This document shows positions 11,865 through 45,649 of a stretch of DNA of 64,000 bases, piece by piece. The stretch is from NCBI GenBank assembly GCA_958296135.2, contig CATQHZ020000001.1, positions 128,001-192,000 of the forward strand, read 5' to 3'. This DNA is from an uncultured Poribacteria bacterium (GTDB lineage: Bacteria > Poribacteria > WGA-4E > WGA-3G). A model generated the notes under the pieces. The model ran no database searches. It saw nothing but the letters and a program-made list of their open reading frames with translations, and was not told the DNA's origin. The position numbers and the translations under genes were made by a program. Position 1 is the first letter of the stretch, and each line of letters starts with the position of its first letter.

Positions 11865-12301
11865 GTTCTCGCGCGCGCCCGGGCTCGTTCGCGCGAGGCA
11901 CGGCGACAACGTCCGCTGCCCCGTAGCGCGAGGGCCGTCACGCCGAAACGTTGTCCTCTCTGCCGCCTCGCTGCAGAGATGTCCACTGTCCCTCGCGCTC
12001 TCCCTACCTACAAGAAAGGCCCCTTTTCACCGTAGCGCGCGGGAAAACCCGGTGCTCGCGAATCGCCGAGGGTTCCCCTCGCGCTCGTTCACGCGCGGCG
12101 ACAACTGCCTCTTTCTCCGTAGCGCGAGGGAGAACCTGTCCCTCGTGCTCTCCCGCGCGCGCGGCGAAAACGTCCACGGCCCCGTAGCGCGAGGGCCTGT
12201 CCCTCGCGCTCTCCCGCGCGCGGCGAAAACGTCCACGGCCCCGTCACTCGCTAACCCCGCTCCCTGAGGTTTCCGTAGGCGCGCTTTCAAAGCGCGCCTA
12301 C
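11865..12301. repeat. REP-like cluster ending in the palindrome GTAGGCGCGCTTTCAAAGCGCGCCTAC
   Basis: Multiple CGTAGCGCG(A/C)GGG units; the palindrome at 12275-12301 supplies the TAG stop of the sulfatase. Confidence 0.88.
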
Positions 12302-13707
12302 CTCGCCCGGGCATCCAGCGGTTTTCTCCACTGTCCTGCAGTAACCTGCTCAATCAAAATGCGCGCCTTCTGACTTGCACGCACCTGCCTCTCAATTTCA
12401 ACCGGGTCCCACGCTGCCAAAAGTTGTGCTTCCAGTGTCTCGCGAATCGCTTGATACGCAGGCGCATCGCCGAGACTCCGAAATTCGCCCGGGTCTTCGA
12501 CGATGTCATAAAGTTCCGGCGCATCGCCGAGGCTATAGTTGAATTTGTATCTTCCCTGCCGCAGCATCGCCATAGGGCGCGCCACCCCGTGCGCGAGGTA
12601 TTCCGAGAAGGCGAAGTTTTTCCAATCCGGCGCGGTGCCTTGTATCAACGACATCAAACTTTCGCCATCCATCTGTCCCCCTTGCTGTGCGTTTGCCAAA
12701 TCGATTAACGTCGCTGTCAAATCCACCAGTGATACGACTTCATCGATGCGTTTTCCTGCCTGCAGATGCCCCGGCAACGTGATTTGCAGCGGCACGCGCG
12801 CCGATGCCTCGTAGAAATTAGACTTCCGCCACATCCCGTGCTCGCCGTTCATTTCACCGTGGTCGCTGGTGTAGACGACGACGGTATTCTCCGCCTGTCC
12901 GGTCTCCTCAAGCGCCTTAAGCAACCTGCCGATTTTCTCGTCAAGGTAAGTAATCAAACCGTAATAGCCGGCTCTGCCTCTGCGCACCAATTCTTCCGGG
13001 AAATCGACATATCCGAACATGCGTCGCATCCGTTGATAGACAGGATGCTGGTTTTCGAGGTGTCCTTCCGGGATGTGAGGCATGTCGATTTCGTCAAGCG
13101 GATAGAGAGCCCAGAACCGCTGCGGCACGACGAGCGGAAAGTGCGGCGCGATAAACGAGACGTTGAGGGCCCACGGTTGCTCCTTCCGCGCGGGTTCGCG
13201 GAGATATGCCAATGCCGCCGTTTCCGCCAGGTTATCCACCTCGATTTCTTCGGTTGTTCCGGGGCCTGCTTGTGCGAGTCCTTGCCATGGGCGCGGTGCA
13301 GGTGGCGTGCCGTTCGCCCAATCCGTGAGCGCGTGTTGTCGTTCTGCGTGCAAATCGCGGGCGAGTTGCGTGCGGAATCCGTGCAGCTGGTCTGTGCCGC
13401 CGAAGTGCTGTTTCCCGGCGAGGACGACATCGTAACCTGCGTGGCGCAGCAGATGCGCCCATGTGATTTCATCCGATGCCAGCGGCGTTGCGTTATCCCA
13501 CGCGCCGATGTTGTGGATATATTTGCCTGTCATGAAAGACATCCGTGAAGGCATACAGAGCGGTGAGTTGCAATAGGCGTTGGTGAACGTGATGCCGTTT
13601 TCAGCGAGTCTATCTAGGTTTGGGGTTTGGACGCTGGGGTGTCCGTATGGACTGCTGAACATGGGCGCGTGTTCATCGGACATGATGATAAGGAGGTTTG
13701 GGGGCAT
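12298..13707 (-). CDS. Sulfatase, choline-sulfatase-like
   Basis: PNLLIIMSDEH, YCNSPLCMPSRMS, GKQHF.G.DQLHGF, SF.APHFP, SDHGEM.GEHGMW.K. Confidence 0.92.
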   Translation of the reverse strand: MPPNLLIIMSDEHAPMFSSPYGHPSVQTPNLDRLAENGITFTNAYCNSPLCMPSRMSFMTGKYIHNIGAWDNATPLASDEITWAHLLRHAGYDVVLAGKQHFGGTDQLHGFRTQLARDLHAERQHALTDWANGTPPAPRPWQGLAQAGPGTTEEIEVDNLAETAALAYLREPARKEQPWALNVSFIAPHFPLVVPQRFWALYPLDEIDMPHIPEGHLENQHPVYQRMRRMFGYVDFPEELVRRGRAGYYGLITYLDEKIGRLLKALEETGQAENTVVVYTSDHGEMNGEHGMWRKSNFYEASARVPLQITLPGHLQAGKRIDEVVSLVDLTATLIDLANAQQGGQMDGESLMSLIQGTAPDWKNFAFSEYLAHGVARPMAMLRQGRYKFNYSLGDAPELYDIVEDPGEFRSLGDAPAYQAIRETLEAQLLAAWDPVEIERQVRASQKARILIEQVTAGQWRKPLDARAR

Positions 13708-13756
13708 GGTTGGGGGTTCCTCTAGGTAAGTCCTGCGGATATAAGTTATGATAGTC

Positions 13757-13975
13757 CTACGAGTCTTTAGAAAACTTATTTTTCAAAAACAAAATAGCTT
13801 TTGAAAGGATCCAGGTAAATAGAAAAAGAAAAGGAAGTTGCAAAAGGGCATGACCCAATACTTGTGCATTAAGCACGACATGTCCCAGACACAAAACCCA
13901 TGAAATATTCCAGATCCATCTGCGTTTTGTGATAAAAGCAAGCGGCAAGGTAATCCAAAGTAATGCAAGCAACAT
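13757..13975 (-). CDS. Small AT-rich membrane protein (about 3 TM)
   Basis: 72-aa hydrophobic ORF with GGAGG RBS just upstream and a TTGACT-containing promoter-like stretch at about 14025-14057. Confidence 0.5.
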   Translation of the reverse strand: MLLALLWITLPLAFITKRRWIWNISWVLCLGHVVLNAQVLGHALLQLPFLFLFTWILSKAILFLKNKFSKDS

Positions 13976-14196
13976 CGGATACCCTCCTAATTAAATTCTT
14001 CTTAAACTTCAGTTGCTGCTGTATAGTATAGCACAAAAGTTCTCTTCTGAAGTCAAGTTTTTGAGAAATCTTCAGGAAGTTCGATTTCTGCATACGCGAC
14101 AGCAATTTTAGAAACATGCTTCGCTAGAAAAAGAAGGCGACACGCATGAGGCAGACAAGAATCAACACGCACGTCGTGTACAACCTGAATCACAGA

Positions 14197-15837
14197 TCAA
14201 GCCGCGCGATGCTGATACAGGTTCTCCCTTGGCAGCATTTCCACATCGTCGTATGCAAACGGATGTTGCTCAATTCCAATTTGAGACTGGAATAGATTTC
14301 TCTTCATAGGTGAAACTGATGGCCGCTCTTCCTGCTCCGTTAACAATTCGGCGATGTCCTCCGGCAATTTAACCCCTATTTTATTCTCAAAGTCCTCGAC
14401 GCTCTGATAATCGCTGCAAAATGATGCGATAATATCCACACCCCGTTTGCTAGCAATAGTCAAATCTGCCCTGGCTTTTTCCCATTCGTGCTCGTGTAAC
14501 CACGCCAAGGCACGATGGGAGTAGGCATGCACAAAATCGGGTTTAAGTTGTATGGCCGTCGTGTAGTCCGTGATTGCCGTGTCAACTTCGCCCTTGTTAC
14601 GATAAACATTGCCGCGATTATAGTACGCGACCGCCAACATTGGGTTGAGTTGTATCGCTGCTGTATGATTCGCGATGGCTTTATCAAACTCGTTTTTGAT
14701 AGCGTAGGCATTGCCGCCATTGACATAGGCTGCAACATAATCGGGTTTAAGTTGTATAGCCATCGTATAGTCCGTAATGGCACTATCAAAATCGTGTTTT
14801 TCTCCGTGCACGACACCGCGATTGAAATAGAACTCGGCGTGATATGGAGATCGGTCTATCGCTTTTGTATAGTCCTGAATTGCCTTGTCCAACTCGCTGT
14901 TGTCCTCGTAGGCCATAGCGCGGATGGCATAAACTTGGGCATCGTCGGGGTTCAGTTCAAGGGCTTTGTTGAAGTCCTCAATTGCCAAATCTACCGTGTC
15001 TTTAAGGGCGTGAGCACTGCCACGAATGACATAGGCTTCGGCATAATTAGGTTTCAGTTCAATCGCTTTCGTGCAATTTTCGATTTCCAAATCGACTTCG
15101 CCTATGGTACCGAAAAAGTTCCCGCGGATGACATAAGCATCGGCATCATCGGGTTTCAGTTTAATTGCTTTGTTTAAGTTCTCAATTGCTTGACGTTCTT
15201 CGTTTTTGATACTGTAAGCAACACCAAGTTTGAGATATGCTGCAGCATGCTTTGGGTTCAGTTCAATCGCTGTCGTGTAGTCTGCAATTGCCAGATCAAC
15301 TTCGCGTTTGAATCCGTAAACGTTACCGCGAAGGTAATAGGCCTCAGCGTGCTTCGGGTTGAGCTCTATCGCCGTGGTAAAGTCCATAATGGCCCTGTCA
15401 AACTCGCCTGCGAGAGTGTAAACGTTACCGCGGCAATAATAGAACTCCGCATTTTCCGGATTGAGGCGTATCGCCTGATCGCAGTCCTTAATAGCGAGGC
15501 CGAACTTGCCTTTGATAGCATAGGCTGCCCCTCGTTGGGCGTATGCTTCCGCATAGTCCGAATCGGACCGGATTGCGGCAGTGAAATCCTGAATCGCTAA
15601 GTCAACTTCACCTTTGCCTGCATAGGCGATGCCGCGGTTGCAATAGAGATCTGTCCGCCACTGGGAGAGTCTAATCGCGTAGGTATAGTCCGCAATTGCC
15701 TTGTCAAACTCGCCGATGCGAAGGTAAACGGCCGCACGGAGAGTGTAAGGGACAGCAAACGTTGGACTCATCTCAATTGCGTTGGTAAAGTGCTTGATGG
15801 CTTGCTCATAATGCGCGAGCTGCGTTTGCGTCACCAT
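14197..15837 (-). CDS. TPR-repeat protein (about 13 repeats) with conserved C-terminal tail
   Basis: 34-aa periodic AYxxRGxxY...AIxDxxxAIxLxP units; likely start MVTQTQL. Confidence 0.9.
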   Translation of the reverse strand: MVTQTQLAHYEQAIKHFTNAIEMSPTFAVPYTLRAAVYLRIGEFDKAIADYTYAIRLSQWRTDLYCNRGIAYAGKGEVDLAIQDFTAAIRSDSDYAEAYAQRGAAYAIKGKFGLAIKDCDQAIRLNPENAEFYYCRGNVYTLAGEFDRAIMDFTTAIELNPKHAEAYYLRGNVYGFKREVDLAIADYTTAIELNPKHAAAYLKLGVAYSIKNEERQAIENLNKAIKLKPDDADAYVIRGNFFGTIGEVDLEIENCTKAIELKPNYAEAYVIRGSAHALKDTVDLAIEDFNKALELNPDDAQVYAIRAMAYEDNSELDKAIQDYTKAIDRSPYHAEFYFNRGVVHGEKHDFDSAITDYTMAIQLKPDYVAAYVNGGNAYAIKNEFDKAIANHTAAIQLNPMLAVAYYNRGNVYRNKGEVDTAITDYTTAIQLKPDFVHAYSHRALAWLHEHEWEKARADLTIASKRGVDIIASFCSDYQSVEDFENKIGVKLPEDIAELLTEQEERPSVSPMKRNLFQSQIGIEQHPFAYDDVEMLPRENLYQHRAA

Positions 15838-16633
15838 TCTCGGCATCTCCCTGCTGTTTACAAGTTAAACCTCTAGCGATCTCATTATAGAGTTCCGCAT
15901 TGAGGCGTTGATGTCTAATAAACCCGTGGATGTCGTTGTAGATAGTCTGGGTAGATATCCGGTGATACCTTTCCAAGTGCTTCAGCATCGGCTTTTTGAG
16001 GGATGCTGGGACGTTGATGACATCTTTCTCATTAGGCTCAATAAAGCCTTTCGAGTGTCGGACAAAGACGCTCTTCTGCGCGATGACGCGATGCATCGGT
16101 TCGTAAGGCGGCTGGATATAAGCCTCAATCGGTTCCCTCTTTTGCAAAAGAATCCGGCCATCTTGGCAAGGTGAACCGTCACAAGCCATGAAGAGCGCGA
16201 TGAGATAGTCCTCCGTAAAATCGATGAGGTTGGTCCTACCGCCGTAGTGTTGGATTTCGGCGAGGAGATCAGAATCGTCCACTTTTTTGCGTAAAAACCT
16301 CTTCGCCATGTAGAGCACGGCTGTTTGAACTTCCTCTATATTCGACAGTTCAAGGGCAATTTTTCTGTCATTTTCCTGCCCCGATGCTATCAGGTGAGAC
16401 AGGCTATTGGCGAGTGTTTCCAGAGCCTCTGCCATAACGTCAAAACTTTCCGATTCCAGAAAGAGACGGTAGAGGTTCGAGGAAACTTTCCCATGGTAAG
16501 GCGATTCCTGATAATGCTCCGGCTCGCCACGGAAGAGGTAATCGTCCTCGCGCGATTTCTCTTCGATCTGTCGCAGGAGTCCCTCAACGGTATGTTCCCC
16601 GCTGAGGGAATCGGTTTGGCTTGGGGTGTGCAT
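15806..16633 (-). CDS. FRG-domain protein
   Basis: YLFRGE, IQHYGG.TNLIDFT, IALFMAC, R.IAQKSVF, I....IYND..GF. Confidence 0.88.
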   Translation of the reverse strand: MHTPSQTDSLSGEHTVEGLLRQIEEKSREDDYLFRGEPEHYQESPYHGKVSSNLYRLFLESESFDVMAEALETLANSLSHLIASGQENDRKIALELSNIEEVQTAVLYMAKRFLRKKVDDSDLLAEIQHYGGRTNLIDFTEDYLIALFMACDGSPCQDGRILLQKREPIEAYIQPPYEPMHRVIAQKSVFVRHSKGFIEPNEKDVINVPASLKKPMLKHLERYHRISTQTIYNDIHGFIRHQRLNAELYNEIARGLTCKQQGDAENGDANAARAL

Positions 16634-16715
16634 ACGCGCTCCTTTTTAATAAGGATACCCTATTTCATAAAAGATGTCAACCGAACTTCTCGGCACGGAT
16701 TTCGCAAGAATCACG

Positions 16716-17816
16716 TTAAGGAAGTTGCTGCTTCGCGGGTCCCGGCACTGCGCCATTTTGAGACTGAAAGAGGTTCGGCCAGAGATGGGGCGTTACGGTT
16801 TGCACCTCCTGCTGAGTCAACATGGCGGCGATGGCATCTGGAAGTTGAATCCCCGTTTTCCGTTCAAAATCTGCGGTATTTTCATAATTTCGGCAAAAGA
16901 GTTCGCTGACGTTCGTTCCCCTATCTTGGACAGTTCCGAGGTCTGCTTGTGCCTTTTCCCATTTTTGCAGGTGCAACCACGCTATCGCGCGATTGTAGTA
17001 GGCTTGCGCGTTGTCAGGTGCTAATTCTATCGCGGTTGCATAGTCGCCAAGCCCTCGGGTGACGTTGCCCTTCAGGCAGTAAGCGTTACCACGATTCAGA
17101 TAGGCTTCGGCACAAGCCTGTTTCAGTTCTATGGTTTCATTGAAGTCTTGAATTGCTAGGTGTCCGTCACCTTTGGTGCCGTAAGCGATGCCGCGATTGA
17201 GATAGGCCTCAGCGTGCTTCGGGTTAAGTTCTACCGCCTTGGTGTAACTCGCAATGGCGAAGTCAAGTTCACCTTTCAGTCTGTAAGCATTGCCGCGAAG
17301 GTAGTAAGCGTCGGCCAGTTGCGGATTTCGTCTGATTGCCGCGTTGTAGTCCTCAATAGCGATGTCAATCTCATCTTGCGCACTGTAAGCGATACCGCGC
17401 TTGAGATAGGCATCGGCGTAGTCGGGATTCAGTTTTACCGCCGCGTTATAGTCAACGATTGCCAGGGCGAACTCGCGTTTGATGGCATACGCGTTGCCGC
17501 GATGGTAATAGGCTTCGGGGTAGTCCCAGTCGTAACTGCGGCTGCTGTGTATTGCCGAGGAAAAATCGTCAATGGCCAAGTCAATCTCGCCTTTGTCGAC
17601 ATAAACGCGCCCGCGCCCACAATATGCCTCATGCGGTCTTCGGGTGAGCCGTGTCGCTTCGGTGTAATCGGCGAGTGCCAGATCGAACTTGCCGATTTTC
17701 CGATAAACATCGCCGCGGTGGACGTGTGCATCGAAAAATCTCGGGTACCGTTCAATGGCTCTGCTAAACCCTTTGATGGCTTTTTCATAATGCACGAGCT
17801 GCGTTTGCGTCACCAT
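16716..17816 (-). CDS. TPR-repeat protein (about 8 repeats), paralog of 14197-15837
   Basis: TPR periodicity; same MVTQTQL start and similar C-terminal tail; RBS AGGAG upstream. Confidence 0.9.
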   Translation of the reverse strand: MVTQTQLVHYEKAIKGFSRAIERYPRFFDAHVHRGDVYRKIGKFDLALADYTEATRLTRRPHEAYCGRGRVYVDKGEIDLAIDDFSSAIHSSRSYDWDYPEAYYHRGNAYAIKREFALAIVDYNAAVKLNPDYADAYLKRGIAYSAQDEIDIAIEDYNAAIRRNPQLADAYYLRGNAYRLKGELDFAIASYTKAVELNPKHAEAYLNRGIAYGTKGDGHLAIQDFNETIELKQACAEAYLNRGNAYCLKGNVTRGLGDYATAIELAPDNAQAYYNRAIAWLHLQKWEKAQADLGTVQDRGTNVSELFCRNYENTADFERKTGIQLPDAIAAMLTQQEVQTVTPHLWPNLFQSQNGAVPGPAKQQLP

Positions 17817-17817
17817 T

Positions 17818-18540
17818 CTATGAATCTCCTTTTTGTGCATCGGTTAAACTCGTATAAAATTCTATGTAGGCTTCCAGATAGATGCCCTGATTTTTAATAA
17901 AGCCGTGGAGGTCATTGTAGACGGTTTCGGCAGAGATTCCGTGGTGTCTTTCCAAGTGTTCCAACATCGGCTCTTTGAGGCCTGCGGGAACATTGATAAC
18001 ATCGTCCGCGCTGGGTTCAATAAAGCCATCGGGATGCCTAATAAACACGCTTTTCTGGGAAACAACACGGTTGACTGGCTCGTAAGGCGCGGCGATATAG
18101 TCCCTTAGCAGTCGCTTTGCTTGAAAAATAACCCTACCGTTTTTGCGCAGAGACTCCTCCCGGTCACAAGCCATGAAGAGCGCGATGAGATAGTCCTCCG
18201 TAAAATCGATGAGGTTGGTCCTACCGCCGTAATGCTGAATTTCGGCGAGGATTTCAAAATCGCTAAGCGTCTTGCGGAAAAATCTTCTCGCCGAGTTTAG
18301 CATTACTGTTTGGACATGCTCAATATCAAATCGTTCTGCCGCAACATCAAAGGCTTCGCGCTCAAGGAAGAAGCGGCAAAGTTTCGAGGAAACTTTCCCC
18401 TCATAAGGCGATTCCTGATAGTGCTCAGGTTCGCCACGGAAGAGGTAATCGTCCTCGCGCGATTTCTCTTCGATCTGCCGAAGGAGGCCCCCAACGGTTT
18501 GCTCGCCGTTGAGGGACTCGATGTGGCTTGGGGTGTGCAT
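17818..18540 (-). CDS. FRG-domain protein, paralog of 15806-16633
   Basis: Shared LLRQIEEKSREDDYLFRGEPEHYQESPY and AEIQHYGGRTNLIDFTEDYLIALFMACD blocks. Confidence 0.88.
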   Translation of the reverse strand: MHTPSHIESLNGEQTVGGLLRQIEEKSREDDYLFRGEPEHYQESPYEGKVSSKLCRFFLEREAFDVAAERFDIEHVQTVMLNSARRFFRKTLSDFEILAEIQHYGGRTNLIDFTEDYLIALFMACDREESLRKNGRVIFQAKRLLRDYIAAPYEPVNRVVSQKSVFIRHPDGFIEPSADDVINVPAGLKEPMLEHLERHHGISAETVYNDLHGFIKNQGIYLEAYIEFYTSLTDAQKGDS

Positions 18541-18614
18541 ACGCGCTCCTTTTTAAAAGGATACCCTATTCGGCGGGATATGCCAACCAACCAAATGCTG
18601 AGCGGCGAATGCCG

Positions 18615-19658
18615 TTAACCGGCGGCAGCCCCGCCAACTTCTTGCAAAACCGCCGCGGCGCGCAGTGCCGGTTCCGAAGTAGCGTCGCGCTTGATGATGC
18701 GGTTAAGGTGCAACACGGCGCGGACATCGCCGCCCCTCGCTAACTCCAATGCTTCCTCGAACCCTCTGTTGCCGTAACTGAGGTCTCTCGGAATAACCGT
18801 GAGTTCGTGAGCCTTCCAATAATACTTCAGTTCGTCGGACTTCCAGTCGCGGTAGACATCTTTCCACTGGAGCGCGTCGAAAATGTTCAGGTGCGGCTCC
18901 AGCATGTGCTCAGCGATCGGCGCGTCGACTGCCTGATAACGGTTGTCCAGCGAAACGCGAAGCCGGTCTTCCGTCAAATTCGGCAGTGCCTTGTGGATAG
19001 TCAGCGCGGGAAAGATGAGCGTATCCCCGATTTCGTAGTTCGTGGAGTGCCATTCGCCTTCCAAATCGTCGGTATCCACGCACAAACTGCCGGCACCGAG
19101 GGAAAAGTGGTGGGCTAGCACCTTGTTGGATTTGTGCGAACCGGGCAACACTGCCAAGCCGCCTAACTCGATCGGGCAATCTCCCACCGGTGCCCAACAG
19201 GTATACGTCTCGAAATTTCCTTGAAAGTGGACGAAGTCCTGATGGATAGGAGTCGTATGCGCCGTATACTTCGGAAACCAGAGGCGCGCAATCTTCTGCG
19301 GATGCGGCAGCACCGGCTTCCCGATAATCCTCTCCACCATCCCCACTACCTCGGGCCAGTGCCCAGAGCGGTGGAACGCTTCTAACTTATACACATCGTG
19401 GTATACGTCCGTGTACTCCGAGTCGCCCTCGGTGCATTGGGTGGAGATATCGGCGATGCCGTCCATCGGGTCTGTGCCTGCGACGAGCCAGCCACCGGCT
19501 TGGATAGTTGTGAGCATCTCCTTGCGGAGAGCCCGGAGGTTGCCCGGGTCTTGCAACTGCTTGAAGAAGAGATATCCTTCCTCGGCGATGCGGAGACGGA
19601 GTTCGCCCGGGTCATTCATCGCATCGTTTGAGACGCGAAGTTCTTTTAATGCTGACAT
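18615..19658 (-). CDS. Phytanoyl-CoA dioxygenase (PhyH) family Fe(II)/2OG oxygenase
   Basis: EGYLF, TPIHQD (HxD), W.PVGD, GGL.VLPGSH, distal H in TIHKALPN, R.SLD.RY. Confidence 0.88.
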   Translation of the reverse strand: MSALKELRVSNDAMNDPGELRLRIAEEGYLFFKQLQDPGNLRALRKEMLTTIQAGGWLVAGTDPMDGIADISTQCTEGDSEYTDVYHDVYKLEAFHRSGHWPEVVGMVERIIGKPVLPHPQKIARLWFPKYTAHTTPIHQDFVHFQGNFETYTCWAPVGDCPIELGGLAVLPGSHKSNKVLAHHFSLGAGSLCVDTDDLEGEWHSTNYEIGDTLIFPALTIHKALPNLTEDRLRVSLDNRYQAVDAPIAEHMLEPHLNIFDALQWKDVYRDWKSDELKYYWKAHELTVIPRDLSYGNRGFEEALELARGGDVRAVLHLNRIIKRDATSEPALRAAAVLQEVGGAAAG

Positions 19659-19846
19659 CTGTCTTCCTCCTTTCTAATGGGTGTAAATTAAGGATACCAC
19701 ACGGTGGGGCTGAAGTCAAGTTGTTTTGCGTTTTAGGCAGAACGATTCAGTTTTCGGTTTCTGAGTGGCTGCGGACGTTTTCCGTTTGGGTGCGGGCTTG
19801 TGAGGGATAGGTTTTCCCTCGCGCTACGATGAGCGGGCGATTCTTT

Positions 19847-39318: not shown

Positions 39319-39738
39319 TTAATCCCTTTCGCCGGCCTGCTGTAATGCTTCCTCAATAACCGATTTCCCTAAATAGATTCCGTTCGTCTGCATCTGGATT
39401 AAAAGCGGGATGTGTTGCGCATACCGTCTGGCTCGTTGCTCATCAATAATGACGAGGCGCGCGTTGTGTTCTATTGCCAGGGCAATGACTGCGGCTTCGC
39501 CCGGGTCGAGTTTTATCGGAATCAAAGGGGGTGGCTGAACTACCTGCGGAAATGTTCGGAGCCACGGTGCAGTTTTGAGGGCATTCTGGCGGGCTGTCGG
39601 CTCAATCCCAAGAAACTCCTCTTTAACCTCTTCAGGCATCCACACCTCTGTGTAGAGGGCGCGTAGCAGCGGCAGGTGGTTGAGCATCCATAGCGCAACG
39701 AGTGGGCTATTATTGATAATTACTGGATGTATGGGCAT
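39319..39738 (-). CDS. DUF3368-type PIN-domain protein, apparently with an internal deletion
   Basis: IINNSPL.AL, V..P..V..E, LD.GEA.VIALA, IIDE..ARR.A, ending AGE; the usual G....GT.G.L..AK..G segment seems absent. Confidence 0.75.
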   Translation of the reverse strand: MPIHPVIINNSPLVALWMLNHLPLLRALYTEVWMPEEVKEEFLGIEPTARQNALKTAPWLRTFPQVVQPPPLIPIKLDPGEAAVIALAIEHNARLVIIDEQRARRYAQHIPLLIQMQTNGIYLGKSVIEEALQQAGERD

Positions 39739-40921
39739 TCTCGCTTTTTTTGCCAGTGGCAAAGTCCGCTGCAAGTTCCCCTGGCGTTTCTCCGAAAGGA
39801 GAAAGTCGGTATTTCCCCATGAAACCCATGAACTCGCCATACGGCATGCATGCCAGCCGTGCCGCAAGCCCGATGCTGAGTTCATGGGTTTTGTAGTATT
39901 TCAACGCTAACATCACGCGAGTCTCCTTTTCACGTTCACCCGGGTCTTTCTTGGGAGTCAGCAACGCGGCGATGTCGCCTGGCAGTTTAACGCCGGTTTT
40001 CCGTTCAAAATGGACAACGCTTTTGTAGGAACCACGGAACGCGGCGATGATATCCAGCACCTTGAACTTGGCGGCCCCCAAGTCTGCTTTTGCCTTTTCC
40101 CATTCGCGCAGCCGTAACCACGCTTCGCCGCGGTAGTAATGCGCCTCGGCAGACTCCGGGTTGAGGGTTATCGCCGTGTCCTGGTCCTGTATCGCGCGTT
40201 GGGCATCACCCTTGTGAAGGTAAGCCACACCACGATTGTTGTAAGCCATCGGTGCCTCCGGGGCAAGAGCGATTGCGCGATTATAGTCCGCGATGGCACG
40301 TTCAAGCTCACCTTTGCTATCGTAGACAATGCCTCGATTAATATACGCCTCGGGGCAATCTGGTTTGAGCATAATTGCAGTGCTATATTCTGCAATAGCA
40401 ATCGCAATTTCCCCTTTTTTCCACAAAGCGGTGCCGCGGTTGACATACGCCTCGGCAAGTTTGGGGTTCAATGCTATCGCTGTGTTATAGTCTTCAATAG
40501 CGGCAGCCATCGCGGAATGATAGGCAGTTTCGCTGCAGCCGCTAGCGGCCGAGTGCAGACCCACGGGGATGTGATAGCGCTTAAGGATTGCGTCAACCTC
40601 GCCGTTTTTTTCGTAAGCGATGCCGCGATTGACGTAAGCCGCTGCAAACGTCGGCTCTAATGCAATCGCCTGGCTCAGAGATGCAATAGCCATGTCATGG
40701 CAGCCGCATTTGATGGAATCCAGCCCGAGATTGTAGTAGGCTTTAACGGAATCCGGTTGCAATTCGAGTGCCTGCCTGAAAGCACTGGTTGCCAAACCGT
40801 GCTCGCCTTCTTGGCTATAAGCGATACCGCGGGCGTTACGTGCCTCGGCCGGGGCCACTTTTTTTAGTGCATCTGTAGGTACAGCAAACCCGACGGGAAC
40901 TGCAATGAGTTCTCGCATCAC
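39710..40921 (-). CDS. TPR protein fused to a C-terminal UPF0175-like antitoxin domain
   Basis: About 7 TPRs, the shared KLP.DIA..LT tail, then RVMLALKYY...ELSIGLAARLA.MPYGEFM.FM.KY.LSPF; overlaps the PIN gene. Confidence 0.8.
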   Translation of the reverse strand: MMRELIAVPVGFAVPTDALKKVAPAEARNARGIAYSQEGEHGLATSAFRQALELQPDSVKAYYNLGLDSIKCGCHDMAIASLSQAIALEPTFAAAYVNRGIAYEKNGEVDAILKRYHIPVGLHSAASGCSETAYHSAMAAAIEDYNTAIALNPKLAEAYVNRGTALWKKGEIAIAIAEYSTAIMLKPDCPEAYINRGIVYDSKGELERAIADYNRAIALAPEAPMAYNNRGVAYLHKGDAQRAIQDQDTAITLNPESAEAHYYRGEAWLRLREWEKAKADLGAAKFKVLDIIAAFRGSYKSVVHFERKTGVKLPGDIAALLTPKKDPGEREKETRVMLALKYYKTHELSIGLAARLACMPYGEFMGFMGKYRLSPFGETPGELAADFATGKKSENAHTSSNYQ

Positions 40922-41018
40922 TTTTTCTCCTTTAGAAAGTTGATTTGTTGGGAAATATGGTAACCTATTTGGCGGCTAGAAGTCAAGCGAATTTCACAGT
41001 TCGTCTGAATCAGGTTTT

Positions 41019-43088
41019 TTATTCACTACTGAGGCCATAGAGCGCAGACACCTCCCGCTCCAACGCAGCCTCAAGCCCAGACACATCCGCCGCAAAATCC
41101 GCGTGCTTCGCAGACAGAATCGCATCAACTAACGCAACAACCGGTGCCTGCTGCGCCGGCGAAACATCCGGAATCGGCAGCTGCTTCCAATCATCAGGAT
41201 AGATATGGATATTGCTCCGACGATTCGCCATTAAGAAATCACGCGCAACGCGGGAATTCATCACGCCAAGAAGGAACTTCACGGAAAACCGACGACTCAT
41301 TTCTTCCAATTCTTCGCGACGCGGGAGTTCCGGACGCTGCGGCTTTTCATCACGATAACGAGCCTTCTGTTTTATCGCTCTGTTCCGCACGCCTGCTAAA
41401 TCGTGCCAAAGCGTGAAGGACCAGGCTGATTGATTATGACGGAGGTGCCGGTCATCGTAGGAGACCTTTAATTTTTTCACGCCGGCCGCCATGTCCGCCG
41501 AAATTAATCTCTCCGCGACTTCGTATAATTCGGGGAACGTTGTTGACGTGAACAAGGCAGGCGCACGCTCTGTCCCCCACTCCAGCCATTTATTTGTCGC
41601 AGGGAGCCATCTCGCGAGATGCTTCCCTTCTACAAACGGCTTCGGGTGAGTTTCGTCGTGGACATCTGAAACCAGATCTCGGACACCGAATGCCCCGCGC
41701 GCTTGCTTGTTCGCATGCACTACCATCCCAACCGAAATATAGCAAATGGTGTCAAGCGTCACCGTTGGAACAGTGAATTGTTGAACTTCAGTATCTTCTG
41801 GGAAAAAGAGACGATGGGTGAGGTTCTGTTGCGCATCAGTTGACAATAGGGTAACGTTACCAAATTCAGGAGCGTGCACGCGGCGTTCCGGCTCATGCTC
41901 GCTCCCAGCAGCTCTCTGAAACAGATAGGTGATATTCCGCACAGCGGCATCGAAGATTTGAATATCCCGGAAGAAGTTAAGACAGCATATCCGGCTATTC
42001 TCCCGAAACCACTCCTGCGATTTCAAGGCATACTTCGCGTGGCAATAAGCATCCGAGACGATGAGCGTCGTGAAACCACCGGGCTTGAGTAGTTTGTAAC
42101 TCCGCTCAATGAACGGAATATAGAGGTCCCACTTTCCGAAGAGGGTTTCGTACTGCGCGCTATCCTTAATTGCCTGACGCAGTGCCTGTTGCCCAGGGGC
42201 ATCCGCTCTGACATAAGGCGGATTGCCAATCGTAATATCAAACCCCTCTGAAATCCCAAACATCCATTCCGCATCGAAGAAATCGGCAACAGCGTTTTGG
42301 TTATAGGGCTCCCACGCTGCGAGCTCTTGTGCAGTGCCGCTCGGCAAACCTAAATCGCGCAACAACGCGCTTATCTCCCGACGAAGCCGCGCATCCTGCT
42401 GACGATACCGTTCCTTCGTCTGAGGCGTGCGAGCGGTGAAATGACGACGACGCACCTCTGCTAACTGCCGCTCTTTCTCACTAATTTCAGTACTGCGGAG
42501 AGACAATTGTCCTTCAATGCCGAGCAGCGTATTCGCCGCGACGAACTTCGTCTCCAGATTCGGCAGGGGCCGCACGCCGCGGTTCGCCTTCGTGTCGTCT
42601 AGCCGCTGCTCAACGATGAGCGAGATGAAGAAGCGCAGTTTGGCAATCTGCGTCGCAATCGGCTGGATATCCACGCCGTAGATGCAGTGCTCTATCAGGT
42701 AGAGTTTCCTGCCGTAGTCTAACTCGTTCCGTTCAAATGCCTCATTAATGCTCTCTATCTCGCGTTCAAGTTCACCGATGGTGCTTTCGCGGAAGGTGCT
42801 GTCGTCAATCTGCTCAGCGGCGGCGATAGTGCGGCGCACCCTGTCTATCTGGCGTTGCCGCCACTGCGCATTGCCCGGGTCCAGTTTGCTCAACAGAAAG
42901 ACGAGTTTGTGCAGGATGCCCATCGGGAAGGCACCGGAGCCGCACGCCGGATCGAGGATTTTGAGCGAGTCAATTGCATGAATGAGCTGCGCGGTTTCTG
43001 CTTCGGTGAACCGATGCGGTTCATCGGTATAGGCGAGCAGGTGCAGCAGGGCTGCGTCCAAATCGGTGCGTTCTACCCCCCCCCTCAT
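41019..43088 (-). CDS. Type IIG (Eco57I-like) R-M enzyme, C-terminal part (adenine MTase motifs plus specificity region)
   Basis: ILDPACGSGAF (motif I), IYGVDI, PLPNLE, GFDI.IGNPPY (motif IV), DLY..FIE, FLLGVMNS, LPIP. Confidence 0.88.
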   Translation of the reverse strand: MRGGVERTDLDAALLHLLAYTDEPHRFTEAETAQLIHAIDSLKILDPACGSGAFPMGILHKLVFLLSKLDPGNAQWRQRQIDRVRRTIAAAEQIDDSTFRESTIGELEREIESINEAFERNELDYGRKLYLIEHCIYGVDIQPIATQIAKLRFFISLIVEQRLDDTKANRGVRPLPNLETKFVAANTLLGIEGQLSLRSTEISEKERQLAEVRRRHFTARTPQTKERYRQQDARLRREISALLRDLGLPSGTAQELAAWEPYNQNAVADFFDAEWMFGISEGFDITIGNPPYVRADAPGQQALRQAIKDSAQYETLFGKWDLYIPFIERSYKLLKPGGFTTLIVSDAYCHAKYALKSQEWFRENSRICCLNFFRDIQIFDAAVRNITYLFQRAAGSEHEPERRVHAPEFGNVTLLSTDAQQNLTHRLFFPEDTEVQQFTVPTVTLDTICYISVGMVVHANKQARGAFGVRDLVSDVHDETHPKPFVEGKHLARWLPATNKWLEWGTERAPALFTSTTFPELYEVAERLISADMAAGVKKLKVSYDDRHLRHNQSAWSFTLWHDLAGVRNRAIKQKARYRDEKPQRPELPRREELEEMSRRFSVKFLLGVMNSRVARDFLMANRRSNIHIYPDDWKQLPIPDVSPAQQAPVVALVDAILSAKHADFAADVSGLEAALEREVSALYGLSSE

Positions 43089-44643
43089 ATCTGTTAAGCC
43101 TTAAGGCACTCTTGAGATACGCCATCAGCGATGCGTCTACCATGTAATTGACGATTTCACGCGGCGTGTAGAAAGAGCCTGTCTGCTTGCGCGCGGTGGT
43201 GCCGGTTTCGGGATTATAGGCGGCAAGGAGGTTCTCGAAGACGCGCCCGAGCAGCTCGGGGTCCAACGCGACTTCCGCCTCAATCGGCGTGTTCTCGGCC
43301 ATCGTGAACTTATAGCGGTTGAGGATGTTGAGGATGCCGCGCACGGTATAGCGTCGGTTTTTTGTGCCGTAGACAGCGTTGAGCTCCACCTCCTGTTCTG
43401 CGGCGAAGAAGAGTTCGTTGGGGACATGGAGAGGGTTTTCCTCCCGGTCTGAAAAACCGTCAACCCGTAAGAGGCGTTTTGGACGTTCCGCATCGGGTTT
43501 GTCAAGGCACTCAAACAGTCCACCGTTGAGGAACGGAATGGACTCAAACAGACGAAGTGCTCCCTCTGCATCCCGGAAATAACGTTTGTATCGGTAGCGC
43601 GACGTGATGTTATAGTGCTGCCGCCCATCGCCGCGAAACTTGCGCCGCGTCGGATGTGCCGGCGTGTTCATCTCCTGATTGAGAGTGGCGAAAAATAGGT
43701 TCTGGAGAATGGCTTGGTAGTAGGTGCTCTCGTGCGGCGGCATCGCGCCCGGAAGGTCGCGCCGACCGGTAAGGAGTTTTTTTATCTCCGTTTCGTCAAA
43801 GAGCGCATCCGGGACGAGCCCTTTCTCCTTCAGAAACCAGACGAAGATGAGACGCGTAATCAGCCGAATGACGCACGTCGCGTTGCGCACGGCGACATCC
43901 TCACCGGCATCCGCGGGAAAGGTGACGTTCTCGACGGCCCAGAAATACCAGTCAGCGAGTTCGCGGAAGAAGCGTTTATTGAGCACCGAACTATCCAACG
44001 TTTTCTGCCATGCCTGATGCAATTCAAGGAAATTGGTAAAGCCGTGCGCGCGATGCAGTGCGCCGAGGGATAAGTCGGCGAGAATCTCAACGTGCGCACG
44101 ATGCGGGGTGACAACGTCAATATCCTTGATGAGGCTGACTTTTTCAAGGACATCGCGTTCTCCGTCGCGTCGGCTCGGACGGCGGTGGATGATGGCGAAA
44201 GTGAGCGACTGTCCGTGCTGGAAAAGGAGCAGCGCGGGTATAGCGAAGACTTTGTTGACTTCGCGGGTGATGCTGGCAAGCGCGGTGCGGCTGTAAGTGC
44301 TTCCCTTCAATTTCACGGCAAGGAAGAGATAGGAACGGTAGATGGCCGGATCGACCGTGGTGTGCGTTGCGAGCTCGAACCCCGAGGGCATTCCTTCAGT
44401 AATTTCCTTTTCGGTGAGTTGGAAGAGGAAGTCGACGGTGTGCCATTCGGGGAGCAATGCCTTTTCCGGATGGAGTTGCCACCGCGCGAGGAATCCCTCG
44501 GCGGTGTTGGGTTCAATGTGAAGCGTTCGGTTGCTTGCGTAACCTAACACGCGGAAGAGATGACGCGCATTCTCGGCAAAATGCCCGGCGGTGAAGCCGT
44601 GGAGTGCCGCTTTAATCTGTGCTTTGTGGGATATGTCGTTCAT
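43021..44643 (-). CDS. Type IIG R-M enzyme, N-terminal part (out of frame at a G9 tract)
   Basis: LNKRFF.EL..W, VIRLITRLIFVWFLKEK, LQNLFF..LN, IPFLNGGLF, LDPELLG.VFENLL, RKQTGSFYTPREIV.YM. Confidence 0.88.
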   Translation of the reverse strand: MNDISHKAQIKAALHGFTAGHFAENARHLFRVLGYASNRTLHIEPNTAEGFLARWQLHPEKALLPEWHTVDFLFQLTEKEITEGMPSGFELATHTTVDPAIYRSYLFLAVKLKGSTYSRTALASITREVNKVFAIPALLLFQHGQSLTFAIIHRRPSRRDGERDVLEKVSLIKDIDVVTPHRAHVEILADLSLGALHRAHGFTNFLELHQAWQKTLDSSVLNKRFFRELADWYFWAVENVTFPADAGEDVAVRNATCVIRLITRLIFVWFLKEKGLVPDALFDETEIKKLLTGRRDLPGAMPPHESTYYQAILQNLFFATLNQEMNTPAHPTRRKFRGDGRQHYNITSRYRYKRYFRDAEGALRLFESIPFLNGGLFECLDKPDAERPKRLLRVDGFSDREENPLHVPNELFFAAEQEVELNAVYGTKNRRYTVRGILNILNRYKFTMAENTPIEAEVALDPELLGRVFENLLAAYNPETGTTARKQTGSFYTPREIVNYMVDASLMAYLKSALRLNRYEGGGRTHRFGRSPAAPARLYR

Positions 44644-45649
44644 AAGTCTCATTTAGGAAAGCCGTGAGTTCCTCGAAGTTATCAAAGATGCGCTCGCATA
44701 AGTTTTCAAAGAAAATGCTCCGCTCGCCGCTGTAAACAGCGTAGACAGGCTTGTTATAGCGAGAGGCGTAGTTCATCTCACTCAGCACGCCGGGCGACAG
44801 TTTGTCGGTGGGGTAGATAACGACGACGAAATCGCTCTGATGGAGGAACTGATAATCGCGTGAGATGGTGCGCGTCTTAATCTGCTCAATGACTTTCTCA
44901 TCAATCGTCGGGAGGCGGCGGTCCAACCCTATCGTAGAAGATTGGCTTTCTCGGACGAGAGCCATGTCCTTGATAGAGAGCGGGTCGAAGACAATAAATT
45001 CCGTTCGTAGTTTTTCGCCGAGGGCACGAATCGCCTCAATCTCCTCCGGTGTCTCTGTCAAAATCGTAATCGGGTAACTGAGATACAGCGTCGGTTTTGA
45101 GGAGAAGAGCAGTTCGTAAAAGTTGTCGAGTGGGTGCTGGCGCGCGACGGTGTAGTGCGGTTTCTGATAAAGATTCGCGAGCTGCTTCGTCAGGAATTCC
45201 TCTTCGTCGAGCCAGACGTTGAGCGTGTCATGTCCGACATTGTTCCATTGCGGATTGTTCGCCATCCGGTTGGCGATGTCGGCGATGTTGTCAACAACGT
45301 TGATGAAAAGATCCGGTGGGAAGCACTCGATGTCCTTAAACGAGATGCCTTCCAGGAGGGTGCCTCTCCAGCGGAAGCAGGCGTGTAGCCCGATGACAGC
45401 GTGTTCGGAGTCGTCGGCGCGGCTGGCGATTTCATAGAAAGCAGCACGGCGCGCGAGAGATAAGACGGCCGGGTCGGAATCAAGCACCTTTTCGGTGAAT
45501 CGGATGCCGGATGCGGCGGCTGCGCGATGCATGAAATCGCCGACGTTAAAGAAGCCGATGTCCGTCTCTTTTTCGAGACAGAGTGCCTCAAAATCGGCGA
45601 TGAGTTCTTTGCGGCCGGCGCAACTGATGCCAGTGCAGATGATGTTCAT
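44612..45649 (-). CDS. NMP-kinase-like P-loop domain fused to a nucleoside 2-deoxyribosyltransferase-like domain
   Basis: N-terminal IICTGISCAGRK deviant P-loop resembling archaeal adenylate kinase; C-terminal LYLSYP, VFDP, RDY....SD.VVV, SPGV.SE..YA...KPVY. Confidence 0.6.
   Translation of the reverse strand: MNIICTGISCAGRKELIADFEALCLEKETDIGFFNVGDFMHRAAAASGIRFTEKVLDSDPAVLSLARRAAFYEIASRADDSEHAVIGLHACFRWRGTLLEGISFKDIECFPPDLFINVVDNIADIANRMANNPQWNNVGHDTLNVWLDEEEFLTKQLANLYQKPHYTVARQHPLDNFYELLFSSKPTLYLSYPITILTETPEEIEAIRALGEKLRTEFIVFDPLSIKDMALVRESQSSTIGLDRRLPTIDEKVIEQIKTRTISRDYQFLHQSDFVVVIYPTDKLSPGVLSEMNYASRYNKPVYAVYSGERSIFFENLCERIFDNFEELTAFLNETYERHIPQSTD

Follow-up and report, generated by a model that had tools for sequence, protein, structure and literature searches.

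In the genome of an uncultured Poribacteria bacterium, we found two tandem units on the minus strand, each composed of a promoter-like site, an FRG gene and a TPR gene, within a stretch of 64,000 nucleotides (the window; contig CATQHZ020000001.1, positions 128,001 to 192,000, coordinates below being counted from its first letter). As judged by comparison with related loci, the gene pair arose by fission of a single-chain FRG-TPR gene and reflects neither error nor decay. The reading that we favour, with a probability of about 0.6, is that the two products form an effector and sensor module that originated from this fission, in which an ADP-ribosyltransferase (ART)-like FRG protein would be regulated by a TPR array, both acting as one complex.

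Gene layout of the two units

In unit A, the FRG A gene (17818..18540, minus strand; 240 aa, with a predicted ART-like fold) precedes the TPR A gene (16716..17816, minus strand; 366 aa), and in unit B the FRG B gene (15806..16633, minus strand; 275 aa) precedes the TPR B gene (14197..15837, minus strand; 546 aa). Both FRG proteins pass the gathering score of the Pfam FRG domain (PF08867), with 41 bits for FRG A and 38 bits for FRG B compared to a cut-off of 25, and the TPR proteins match Pfam TPR_1 with E-values of 1.8e-58 (TPR A) and 4.3e-95 (TPR B). The promoters of both units are putatively sigma-70-like, being pattern matches in a consensus scan: TTGGCA-17-TATCCT at 18558..18586 (minus strand; 9/12) for unit A and TTGACA-17-TATCCT at 16652..16680 (minus strand; 10/12) for unit B. 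Each promoter-like site lies inside a copy of a leader, AATAGGGTATCCTT..AAAAAGGAGCGCGTATG, that is common to units A and B and also present in a related locus (L008). The ORFs, the profile matches and this shared leader bear out the initial annotation, which had described two diverged units with a promoter-like leader each. FRG A and FRG B are 59% identical, FRG B having a 26-aa insert and 12 additional codons past Gly-Asp, and TPR A and TPR B are 40-45% identical over the three longest BLASTP segments. Of the 40 family positions that are conserved at 90% or more, each FRG copy retains 39. An Rfam search of positions 13600-18800 yielded no match.

The neighbours adjoining the units encode sulfatases and a PhyH dioxygenase, with no defence or mobile genes among them. 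Compared to the related loci L008 and L009, the flanking genes are 92% (PhyH) and 95% (sulfatase) identical, whereas identity amounts to 61-65% for FRG and 53-77% for the TPR N-terminus, and the window holds two units where L008 and L009 hold one. The FRG-TPR units thus compared appear to evolve fast at a fixed genomic place. Synonymous sites are saturated at the 35-40% protein divergence concerned.

The junction between the FRG and TPR genes

Reading of the sequence at junction A (17814..17829, minus strand) places a GGAG (17829-17826) within the Gly-Asp codons, followed by the FRG stop codon TAG (17820-17818) and the TPR start codon ATG (17816-17814). At junction B (15806..15850, minus strand), read in the same way, the GGAG (15850-15847) is followed by the conserved ATG (15837-15835) and then by the FRG stop codon TGA (15808-15806), the FRG and TPR ORFs of unit B sharing a 32-nt overlap. 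In both units the TPR ORF is in the +1 frame relative to the FRG ORF and its ATG lies 9 nt past the GGAG. An alternative ATG for TPR B, at 15846, directly adjoins the GGAG; relatives lack it, so that 15837 is the likely start.

The layout of junction A recurs in 26 of 27 related loci, and units A and B do not differ at all in the junction stretch AGAATGGTGACGCAAACGCAGCTCG, compared to a mean column identity of 73% for the whole alignment. Two earlier observations, that the TPR ORF begins in the +1 frame and that the junction is conserved between the copies, are thereby corroborated, the former by both units and 26/27 loci and the latter by the identity of this stretch. A sequencing error, initially held to be unlikely, is now excluded by contigs from four runs of one sample, which span both junctions without any change there, and by the 27 loci with a separate TPR ORF. 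A GGAG is also found at the corresponding position in 4 of 11 fused relatives. The GGAGAT of the Gly-Asp codons already resembles a ribosome-binding site, and a nearby stop codon and ATG would suffice for fission.

Fused and split forms of FRG-TPR

The fused protein is the commonest architecture, TPR_1 being present on the same chain in 83 of 105 representatives. Among 273 long FRG matches found, all 120 listed bear TPR families on the same chain, and the best identity to FRG A among these listed (fused) matches is 53%; the best 120 near-length FRG matches span 228-287 aa, with 58-100% identity. Five fused FRG-TPR paralogues reside in the same genome as units A and B. FRG is a widespread domain: FRG A is matched by 1747 clusters at 50% identity, and 48 of 61 related genomes have an FRG-family match, several of them with many copies.

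In the phylogenetic tree, split forms make up a clade nested among fused forms (41/41, SH-aLRT 100), with a second split group elsewhere in the tree (10/10, SH-aLRT 96); a single clade of all split forms was not rejected by the AU test (p 0.373). In all 27 related loci examined, from Poribacteria genomes and differing by up to ~50% in FRG sequence, the FRG gene is followed by a TPR ORF distinct from it. In all loci of the close clade, composed of eight other genomes and units A and B (10/10), the FRG gene terminates no more than a few codons from GD[S/A]E, and the TPR ORF, in the +1 frame, opens with an ATG that follows a GGAG. The same layout was found in 3/3 additional loci, including a second tandem pair in another genome (G007), and 14/14 further genomes have a downstream TPR ORF, which is in the +1 frame in 13 and preceded by GGAG in 13. 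The second split group consists of same-frame pairs parted by stops and 24-nt gaps, or of pairs with other offsets, every pair having a GGAG and an ATG of its own.

Scoring of the collected homologues as fused or split thus upholds the proposal that an ancestral FRG-TPR fusion was stably split: 83/105 are fused, the split clade is nested with an SH-aLRT of 100, and the split, seen in 27/27 loci, is not confined to one decaying lineage. The FRG/TPR case provides a clean example of a gene fission becoming fixed.

Some copies in other genomes (L040, L042) contain in-frame stops, and contigs of two of the four runs carry single-T insertions in these genes away from the junctions. A conserved in-frame TGA flagged in one genus was rejected, as it precedes the start codon and leaves the ORFs intact.

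Family and fold of the FRG domain

The N-terminal [FY]RG motif is present as L-F-R-G-E in both copies. Across 105 relatives, R35 is invariant and G36 and E37 are 99% conserved; the conserved polar residues of FRG are R35, H103, D112, R158, Q162, S164 and D210. An AF2 model of FRG A built on the 105-row alignment (pLDDT 91.3, pTM 0.85) replaced a single-sequence model with a pLDDT of 37. Comparison of this model to known structures by VIA-align ranked ART-fold proteins in the first 9 rows and in most of the 50 rows listed, with TreX as best match (Z 6.2, rmsd 3.6, 110 aligned), followed by LT (5.7), an ADPR/2',3',5'-P-A complex (9ld3; 5.7) and scabin (5.6); DarT, ParT, MbcT and PARPs rank below the top matches, DarT, MbcT and ParT at Z 3.5-4.3. 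Foldseek, which had been suggested as a check on the domain, returned a weak list of the same ART-like make-up, with nothing at E <= 0.001. As no fold match exceeds a moderate Z of 6.2, it is the coherent match list and not a strong score that carries the ART assignment, and we assign an ART-like fold to FRG with moderate confidence.

A PDB profile search with the FRG alignment returned TPR chains only, with no sequence-level match of FRG to solved structures; this is uninformative on the FRG part, because the alignment includes fused members. NCBIfam holds no family for FRG A or FRG B, and the two matching PHROGs families are both of unknown function.

Architecture of the TPR proteins

TPR A, aligned with nine partners, comprises a 9-residue leader, a half repeat (helix B), about 7 full TPRs, a cap and a C-terminal module. 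TPR B has a leader, a half repeat, 12 exact 34-aa repeats from residue 28, a cap and a C-terminal module, and its coding DNA displays a 102-nt periodicity. The repeat numbers given at first (about 13 versus 8) fit this architecture, TPR B having, next to its 12 exact repeats, the N-terminal half repeat and the C-terminal cap. The length of the TPR ORF varies between 255 and 738 residues among split loci.

When a TPR profile was derived from the repeats of the window itself, it matched both TPR N-termini over positions 19-32 only, which correspond to helix B (independent E 3.8e-4 for TPR B and 0.015 for TPR A, residues 12-25), in agreement with the early observation that the TPR ORF begins with this helix. 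The same profile gave zero matches to the FRG A and FRG B tails, and in fused relatives without an insert its first match begins at helix B, leaving the terminal FRG helix unmatched. By manual residue count, the spacing from the Gly of the FRG tail to helix B is canonical in two fused paralogues (L004 and L006). As the spacing fits but the profile is silent, the FRG tail occupies the helix-A position and is not demonstrably a TPR helix A. The initial claim of a split inside a TPR repeat consequently stands for the TPR proteins, which open with a helix-B half repeat, but not for the FRG tail, which is without significant TPR signal. Fused relatives often have a charged 11-14-residue insert in the loop before helix B.

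The conserved C-terminal module, with the motif W-E-K-A..A-D-L .. D-F-E..G..L-P.D-I-A..L, was located by tblastn at 16782..17006 (minus strand) in TPR A and at 14308-14529 (minus strand) in TPR B. It follows the TPRs in 8/8 split loci (L008-L015) and is found in 6/9 fused FRG-TPR loci (L016, L017, L019, L024, L025 and L026); a further copy lies in the window at 39947-40147 (all tblastn). Against Pfam, the module gave only partial TPR matches below the cut-off and SUKH hints (E 0.024 and 0.094, also below the cut-off), and an Atlas feature search gave nothing above 0.87. Elsewhere in the window, a UPF0175 domain of antitoxin type occurs in fusion with a related TPR and C-terminal module.

Possible binding between FRG and TPR

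In silico complex prediction for FRG and TPR, using purpose-made alignments and giving a score without an interface, returned 0.44 compared to 0.00 for the best of three controls, a result that the halves of a split gene may owe to their resemblance to solved TPR structures. Between runs, contacts agree in at least 84% of cases, and the partner pLDDT is at least 86. The mark used is passed by 58 of 80 solved complexes and by 2 of 110 mismatched pairs, the passes at scores up to 0.60 comprising only 7 of the 80 solved complexes and both passing mismatches. The prediction hints that the FRG and TPR halves may bind each other. For the idea that they re-associate through a split TPR, this weak score speaks in favour, while the lack of a significant helix-A signal speaks against it.

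Relation to candidate defence systems

Thirteen PADLOC PDC-S15 profiles match both FRG proteins, covering residues 18-225, with best E-values of 4.2e-16 (FRG A) and 9.9e-16 (FRG B). PDC-S15 is an FRG-domain candidate defence system that PADLOC files as a single gene, and to our knowledge it is a candidate without a tested phenotype. A literature search, within its reach, revealed no experiment on any FRG protein and no phage-protection experiment on PDC-S15. In its passage on Frg, PMC9503650 presents it as an ART-superfamily member and potential antiviral effector or NADase, and traces the prediction to Burroughs & Aravind (2020, J Bacteriol 202:e00365-20); the name 'Frg' was not found in some other work of this group. 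Given the PDC-S15 match and that passage, the FRG family is not undescribed, which qualifies the initial suggestion of an undescribed system. The conflict-system context that was proposed with it gains from the same two sources, but PDC-S15 is a candidate only and the neighbours of the units are metabolic. The units may be regarded as a candidate bacterial defence module in a natural split version.

Proposed mechanism

Beyond the gene layout, its conservation, the fission history and the fold class described above, we infer that FRG is enzymatically active, that the two halves bind each other, that the TPR array exerts control and that the module may act in defence, as follows. The window would hold two tandem two-gene operons with one promoter each. 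The first gene would encode a cytoplasmic FRG protein, most likely an effector that uses NAD+, be it as NADase or as ADP-ribosyltransferase. Translation of the second gene would be coupled to that of the first, the GGAG in the terminal FRG Gly-Asp codons serving as Shine-Dalgarno sequence for the ATG 9 nt further on, which adjoins or overlaps the FRG stop. Its product would be a variable-length TPR array with the conserved C-terminal module. The break point would be the loop between the last FRG helix, at the helix-A position of the first TPR, and helix B. The fission is presumed to be old and kept by selection, FRG and TPR still acting as a single complex after it, with the TPR array as the ligand-binding, regulatory part that would restrain the FRG enzyme until a trigger is bound, in the manner of effector and sensor modules in conflict systems and of fused toxin-antitoxin proteins.

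A more speculative extension, which we consider unlikely as it stands, is that FRG-TPR proteins constitute expanded, fast-evolving, NAD+-targeting immune receptors of sponge-associated bacteria, in which the split TPR sensor docks on the effector, the terminal helix of FRG filling the gap in the first TPR, and in which tandem sensors and effectors are exchangeable (e.g. FRG A with TPR B). If so, such exchange between tandem units would broaden recognition. Should the defence reading be true, a large, diversifying receptor family would join the immune repertoire of uncultured symbionts. The occurrence of fused and split forms in one genome and across species offers a natural design for probing the effect of the TPR array on the enzyme, and the same comparison suits the question of whether the FRG terminal helix is a docking site.

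Alternative explanations

The junction itself bears on two alternatives. It is very improbable that a programmed +1 ribosomal frameshift or other recoding fuses FRG and TPR: the +1 TPR frame in 26/27 close-clade loci and the conservation of the junction at nucleotide level would agree with it, but the conserved feature in 26/27 loci is a GGAG with an ATG 9 nt on, needless for a fused product. Moreover, the FRG stop varies from 0 to 12 codons past Gly-Asp-Ser/Ala with no common slippery site before it, and the second split group has other frames, 24-nt gaps and its own GGAG and ATG. Joining by recoding, initially entertained, is therefore not supported. It is hardly credible that the units stem from misassembly or are fused FRG-TPR genes that a frameshift turned into pseudogenes. 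The fused paralogues in the same genome, the in-frame stops in a few relatives (L040, L042) and the single-T insertions outside the junctions in contigs of 2/4 runs could be taken as signs of this; however, neither unit has a disrupted ORF, 39/40 conserved FRG positions are kept in each, 27/27 loci are broken at the same point and have a TPR ORF downstream in spite of FRG differences of up to ~50%, and the junctions are unchanged in contigs of 4/4 runs.

The two other alternatives accept the split and concern its function. The units might belong to an expanded repeat-protein family of symbionts serving host interaction or ordinary regulation, with FRG being no toxin and the split a neutral linker fission. 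We hold this to be rather doubtful. Metabolic neighbours (sulfatases, PhyH), a chromosomal locus syntenic across species, a 672-aa LRR protein adjoining the unit in L008 and L009, and the sheer size of the family (matches in 48/61 related genomes, several with many copies) are all in line with it. Against these stand the match of FRG to candidate defence models, its ART-like fold, its much faster divergence compared to the flanking genes and the antitoxin-type UPF0175 domain on the related TPR and C-terminal module elsewhere in the window; nor is a signal peptide evident at the N-termini by eye. A toxin-antitoxin-like addiction pair, in which the TPR protein merely neutralises an FRG toxin and senses nothing, appears improbable. 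Antitoxins are usually short, compared to TPR partners that are arrays of 255-738 aa with a variable repeat number; both parts lie on one chain in most relatives, and no autoregulatory DNA-binding domain was found by Pfam. Such a pair would nevertheless account for the toxin-first, translationally coupled layout, for the listing, in the fold search at Z 3.5-4.3, of the ART-fold toxins DarT, MbcT and ParT, which themselves belong to toxin-antitoxin pairs, and for UPF0175 in two long relatives (P0157 and P0204).

Comparison with known systems

The effector and sensor module that we favour can be set beside several known systems. The ART-fold TreX Rhs toxin, heat-labile enterotoxin A, scabin, DarT, ParT and MbcT are matched in fold by the FRG model (VIA-align, Z 6.2 to 3.5, 104-121 aligned; also in the weak Foldseek list), and their sequence identity to it is 6-14%. 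PDC-S15 is filed as a single gene, in contrast to the FRG genes of the window, which always have a TPR partner. In fused toxin-antitoxin sensors of the CapRel SJ46 type, which have split and fused forms, an N-terminal toxic enzyme is restrained by a C-terminal part that recognises the trigger; their domains are unrelated to those of FRG-TPR and the likeness is used as a working analogy only. Closest are the single-chain FRG-TPR proteins, found as paralogues and as relatives in Poribacteria and other MAGs, which have in common with the split units the FRG core, the terminal helix with the helix-B half repeat after it, and the 34-aa TPR array; some of them have the C-terminal module as well. Among the matches listed, the identity of their FRG parts to FRG A does not exceed 53%, and they are one polypeptide, whereas the units of the window are two cistrons with an internal Shine-Dalgarno sequence and ATG.

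Organization of the tandem FRG-TPR units

Two FRG+TPR gene pairs, units A and B, lie in tandem on the minus strand of the window. In unit A, FRG A (18540..17818, 240 aa) is followed by TPR A (17816..16716, 366 aa), and in unit B, FRG B (16633..15806, 275 aa) by TPR B (15837..14197, 546 aa). Pfam FRG matches FRG A with 41 bits and FRG B with 38 bits, against a gathering score of 25, and the partner in each unit is a strong TPR array. The FRG proteins share 59% identity and the TPR proteins 40-45% over the three longest BLASTP segments. One leader type lies 5' of both units, with a sigma-70-like site, a pattern match only, at 18586-18558 in unit A (TTGGCA-17-TATCCT) and 16680-16652 in unit B (TTGACA-17-TATCCT), both minus strand, and AAGGAG between this site and the FRG start; the same leader precedes related genes in other genomes. 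ORFs, Pfam matches and leader alignment thereby confirm the two modules with a shared promoter-like leader, and the initial annotation was right in its essentials.

Origin and maintenance of the split

The common FRG-TPR architecture is a single chain: TPR_1 is present on the same protein as FRG in 83 of 105 representative relatives. A search for longer proteins gave 273 FRG matches; in each of the 120 listed, TPR families accompany FRG in one polypeptide, and identity to FRG A reaches 53% at most. The best 120 matches of similar length measure 228-287 aa (58-100% identity), and GD[S/A/V]E ends 93 of the 95 tails listed for them. The genome itself encodes five fused FRG-TPR paralogues, three in tandem near 2.04-2.05 Mb (L001, L006 and L004, at G000:C1:2041359-2051241), of which L001 has about 100 additional residues beyond its C-terminal module. 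In L022 and in two Caldilineaceae MAGs (L021, L023), FRG cores of 44-46% identity continue into C-terminal regions that are not TPR, measure about 150-180 residues and were assigned to no family.

A tree of 96 FRG parts was built from every third row of the two top-120 lists, to which locus-derived sequences were added. In it the 41 split rows group together as a single clade with SH-aLRT 100, which lies within the fused rows. On the comparison of fused with split homologues that the initial annotation had called for, the ancestral fusion and stable split proposed there are thus well supported, with a fused majority, split forms in one nested clade and a conserved break. We consider gene fission of a single-chain FRG-TPR ancestor very likely (probability about 0.9). 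Within the split clade, units A and B belong to separate subclades, which makes them old paralogues and not the result of a fresh duplication.

The break itself was followed in a scan of species-representative genomes, which gave 22 loci. The nearest eight, at 61-65% identity and each labelled Poribacteria, break as in the window. In these eight plus units A and B (10/10) the FRG stop is no more than a few codons away from GD[S/A]E, and the TPR ORF starts in the +1 frame with an ATG after GGAG. The layout recurs in a further 3/3 loci, with genome G007 contributing a second tandem pair; in 14/14 additional genomes a TPR ORF lies downstream of FRG, with the +1 frame and a GGAG 5' of the ATG each in 13. 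Moreover, of 40 positions with a conservation of 90% or more in 105 relatives, FRG A and FRG B each retain 39. Both junctions are also spanned, unchanged, by contigs assembled from four public runs on one sample. Because relatives, conserved positions and run contigs all agree, sequencing or assembly error, already thought unlikely in the initial annotation, and decay are excluded at this locus; the split is not confined to one decaying lineage.

Away from the junctions, contigs from runs X2 and X4 have one extra T at both 14955 and 16348, and those from X4 alone have another at 18333, whereas X1 and X3 lack all three insertions; each is preceded by G, stands before TTC and would break the reading frame, and they look like run-specific artefacts. 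In other genomes, in-frame stops occur inside the FRG gene (TAA in L040, genome G040; TGA in L042, genome G010) and L054 and L055 end a few codons early, which suggests turnover of copies.

Other genera contain a further split group (44-52% identity), in which a separate TPR ORF follows FRG in 8 of 10 loci, with differing spacings and frames; none was found in L033 and L036 by the criteria used. This group forms its own clade (10/10, SH-aLRT 96) apart from the first. A topology uniting all split forms was not rejected by an AU test (p 0.373), so there may have been one fission or two.

Position of the break and the junction

The initial annotation placed the split inside a TPR repeat. A profile built from the window's own 34-residue repeats matches the starts of TPR A and TPR B over positions 19-32 only (helix B), and TPR B has 12 exact repeats from residue 28, indicating that its N-terminus is a 9-residue leader plus a half repeat. 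The half repeat therefore stood; the FRG tail as helix A did not find a profile match, neither in FRG A nor in FRG B. In fused relatives, insert-free ones included, the first profile match likewise starts at helix B. The fused L004 and L006 show canonical spacing from the tail Gly to the helix-B Ala, aromatic, Ala, Pro (residues counted by eye), and in other fused relatives a charged insert of 11-14 residues sits at precisely that position. By its spacing the FRG tail occupies the helix-A position, the last FRG helix probably being a degenerate capping helix A, and fission would have occurred in a loop at the domain boundary between FRG and TPR.

The unit A junction reads GGA GAT TCA TAG A ATG GTG: TAG ends FRG A, and TPR A starts one base on, 9 nt after GGAG. 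In unit B, GAG replaces TAG, so that FRG B extends 12 codons further and overlaps TPR B by 32 nt. GGAG and ATG are placed alike in both units, and the terminal FRG Gly-Asp codons therefore double as ribosome-binding site of the TPR gene. Both junctions are of the ordinary translationally coupled type, and the joining of the products by recoding that had been suggested finds no support.

For the alternative suggestion, re-association through a split TPR, a single FRG + TPR complex prediction scored 0.44 (best of three controls 0.00). Of 80 solved complexes 58 reached the mark, as did 2 of 110 mismatched pairs; only 7 of the 80, and both passing mismatches, did so with a score of 0.60 or under. 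Contact agreement between runs was at least 84%, the partner had a pLDDT of 86 or more, and the prediction gave no interface. The two parts of a split gene may also pass because they resemble TPR structures already solved. The prediction counts mildly in favour of binding, and split-TPR docking is plausible, the missing interface and helix-A match weighing on the other side.

Locus context and divergence

The nearest neighbours are sulfatases and a PhyH dioxygenase, with no defence genes among the immediate neighbours. In the split relatives L008 and L009, from other genomes, a unit lies between the same PhyH (92% identical) and sulfatase (95%), whereas the FRG protein is only 61-65% and the TPR N-terminus 53-77% identical; one unit plus an LRR protein takes the place of the window's two units. 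Over the units G+C is about 46-54%, versus 55-66% in the flanks, and TPR ORFs range from 255 to 738 residues. A diversifying recognition module would be one fitting candidate for a locus that stays in place on the chromosome while its sequence diverges fast and its copy and repeat numbers change.

Between TPR B and the sulfatase, 13757-14196 (40% G+C) holds only short, unconvincing ORFs; the LRR protein of L008 and L009 (672 aa) takes its place. A 27-nt inverted repeat (12118-12144 and 19802-19828, 93% complementary) flanks a 7.7-kb segment with the sulfatase, both units and PhyH, and G+C-rich short direct repeats lie at 11886-12244. The FRG genes, about 73% identical in nucleotides overall, have stretches of 98-100% identity at 16178-16341 versus 18163-18326 and at both 5' ends, among them about 27 codons of the QHYGG..LIDF motif that match without exception; L008 shares 87-89% identity with the near-identical stretch. 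The pattern may reflect gene conversion between the two tandem genes.

Some 21 kb away (39319-44652), a minus-strand TPR protein (39710-40921) has the C-terminal module of TPR A and TPR B and, after it, a UPF0175 antitoxin-type domain (E 2.7e-11); it adjoins a weak DUF3368-like ORF (39319-39885, minus), and an Eco57I-type methylase/restriction gene pair lies beyond (41019-43088 and 43021-44652, minus). The combination of TPR array and C-terminal module is thus found together with toxin-antitoxin parts as well.

Comparison with known systems

Thirteen profiles of the PADLOC family PDC-S15 match both FRG proteins (best E 4.2e-16); we take PDC-S15 to be a candidate defence family without a tested phenotype. 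Literature searches on the FRG domain, PDC-S15, Poribacteria FRG and Frg-TPR gave no description of a split form, the key 2020 paper and its supplements being beyond reach; the tandem split genes are a new form of a candidate family that is already known, though untested.

An AF2 model of FRG A (105-row alignment; pLDDT 91.3, pTM 0.85) gave no Foldseek match at E <= 0.001, so that the Foldseek check proposed initially yielded a weak list only, mostly of ADP-ribosyltransferase (ART) folds, which also dominate an independent VIA-align search. The latter aligned the Rhs toxin TreX (Z 6.2, rmsd 3.6, 110 aligned), heat-labile enterotoxin A (Z 5.7), the ADPR/2',3',5'-P-A complex 9ld3 (Z 5.7) and scabin (Z 5.6), with lower scores for pertussis S1, Arr, DarT, ParT, MbcT and PARPs. 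Because these scores are moderate, we regard the ART class as likely, not proven. In print, Frg is assigned to the ART superfamily as a potential antiviral effector or NADase (PMC9503650), in agreement with the fold matches. Fold class, family context and evolutionary behaviour tentatively point to FRG as an ART-like effector that uses NAD+ under the control of its TPR partner, a somewhat less than even prospect, in which the pair would work like an effector-plus-sensor or a fused toxin-antitoxin module.
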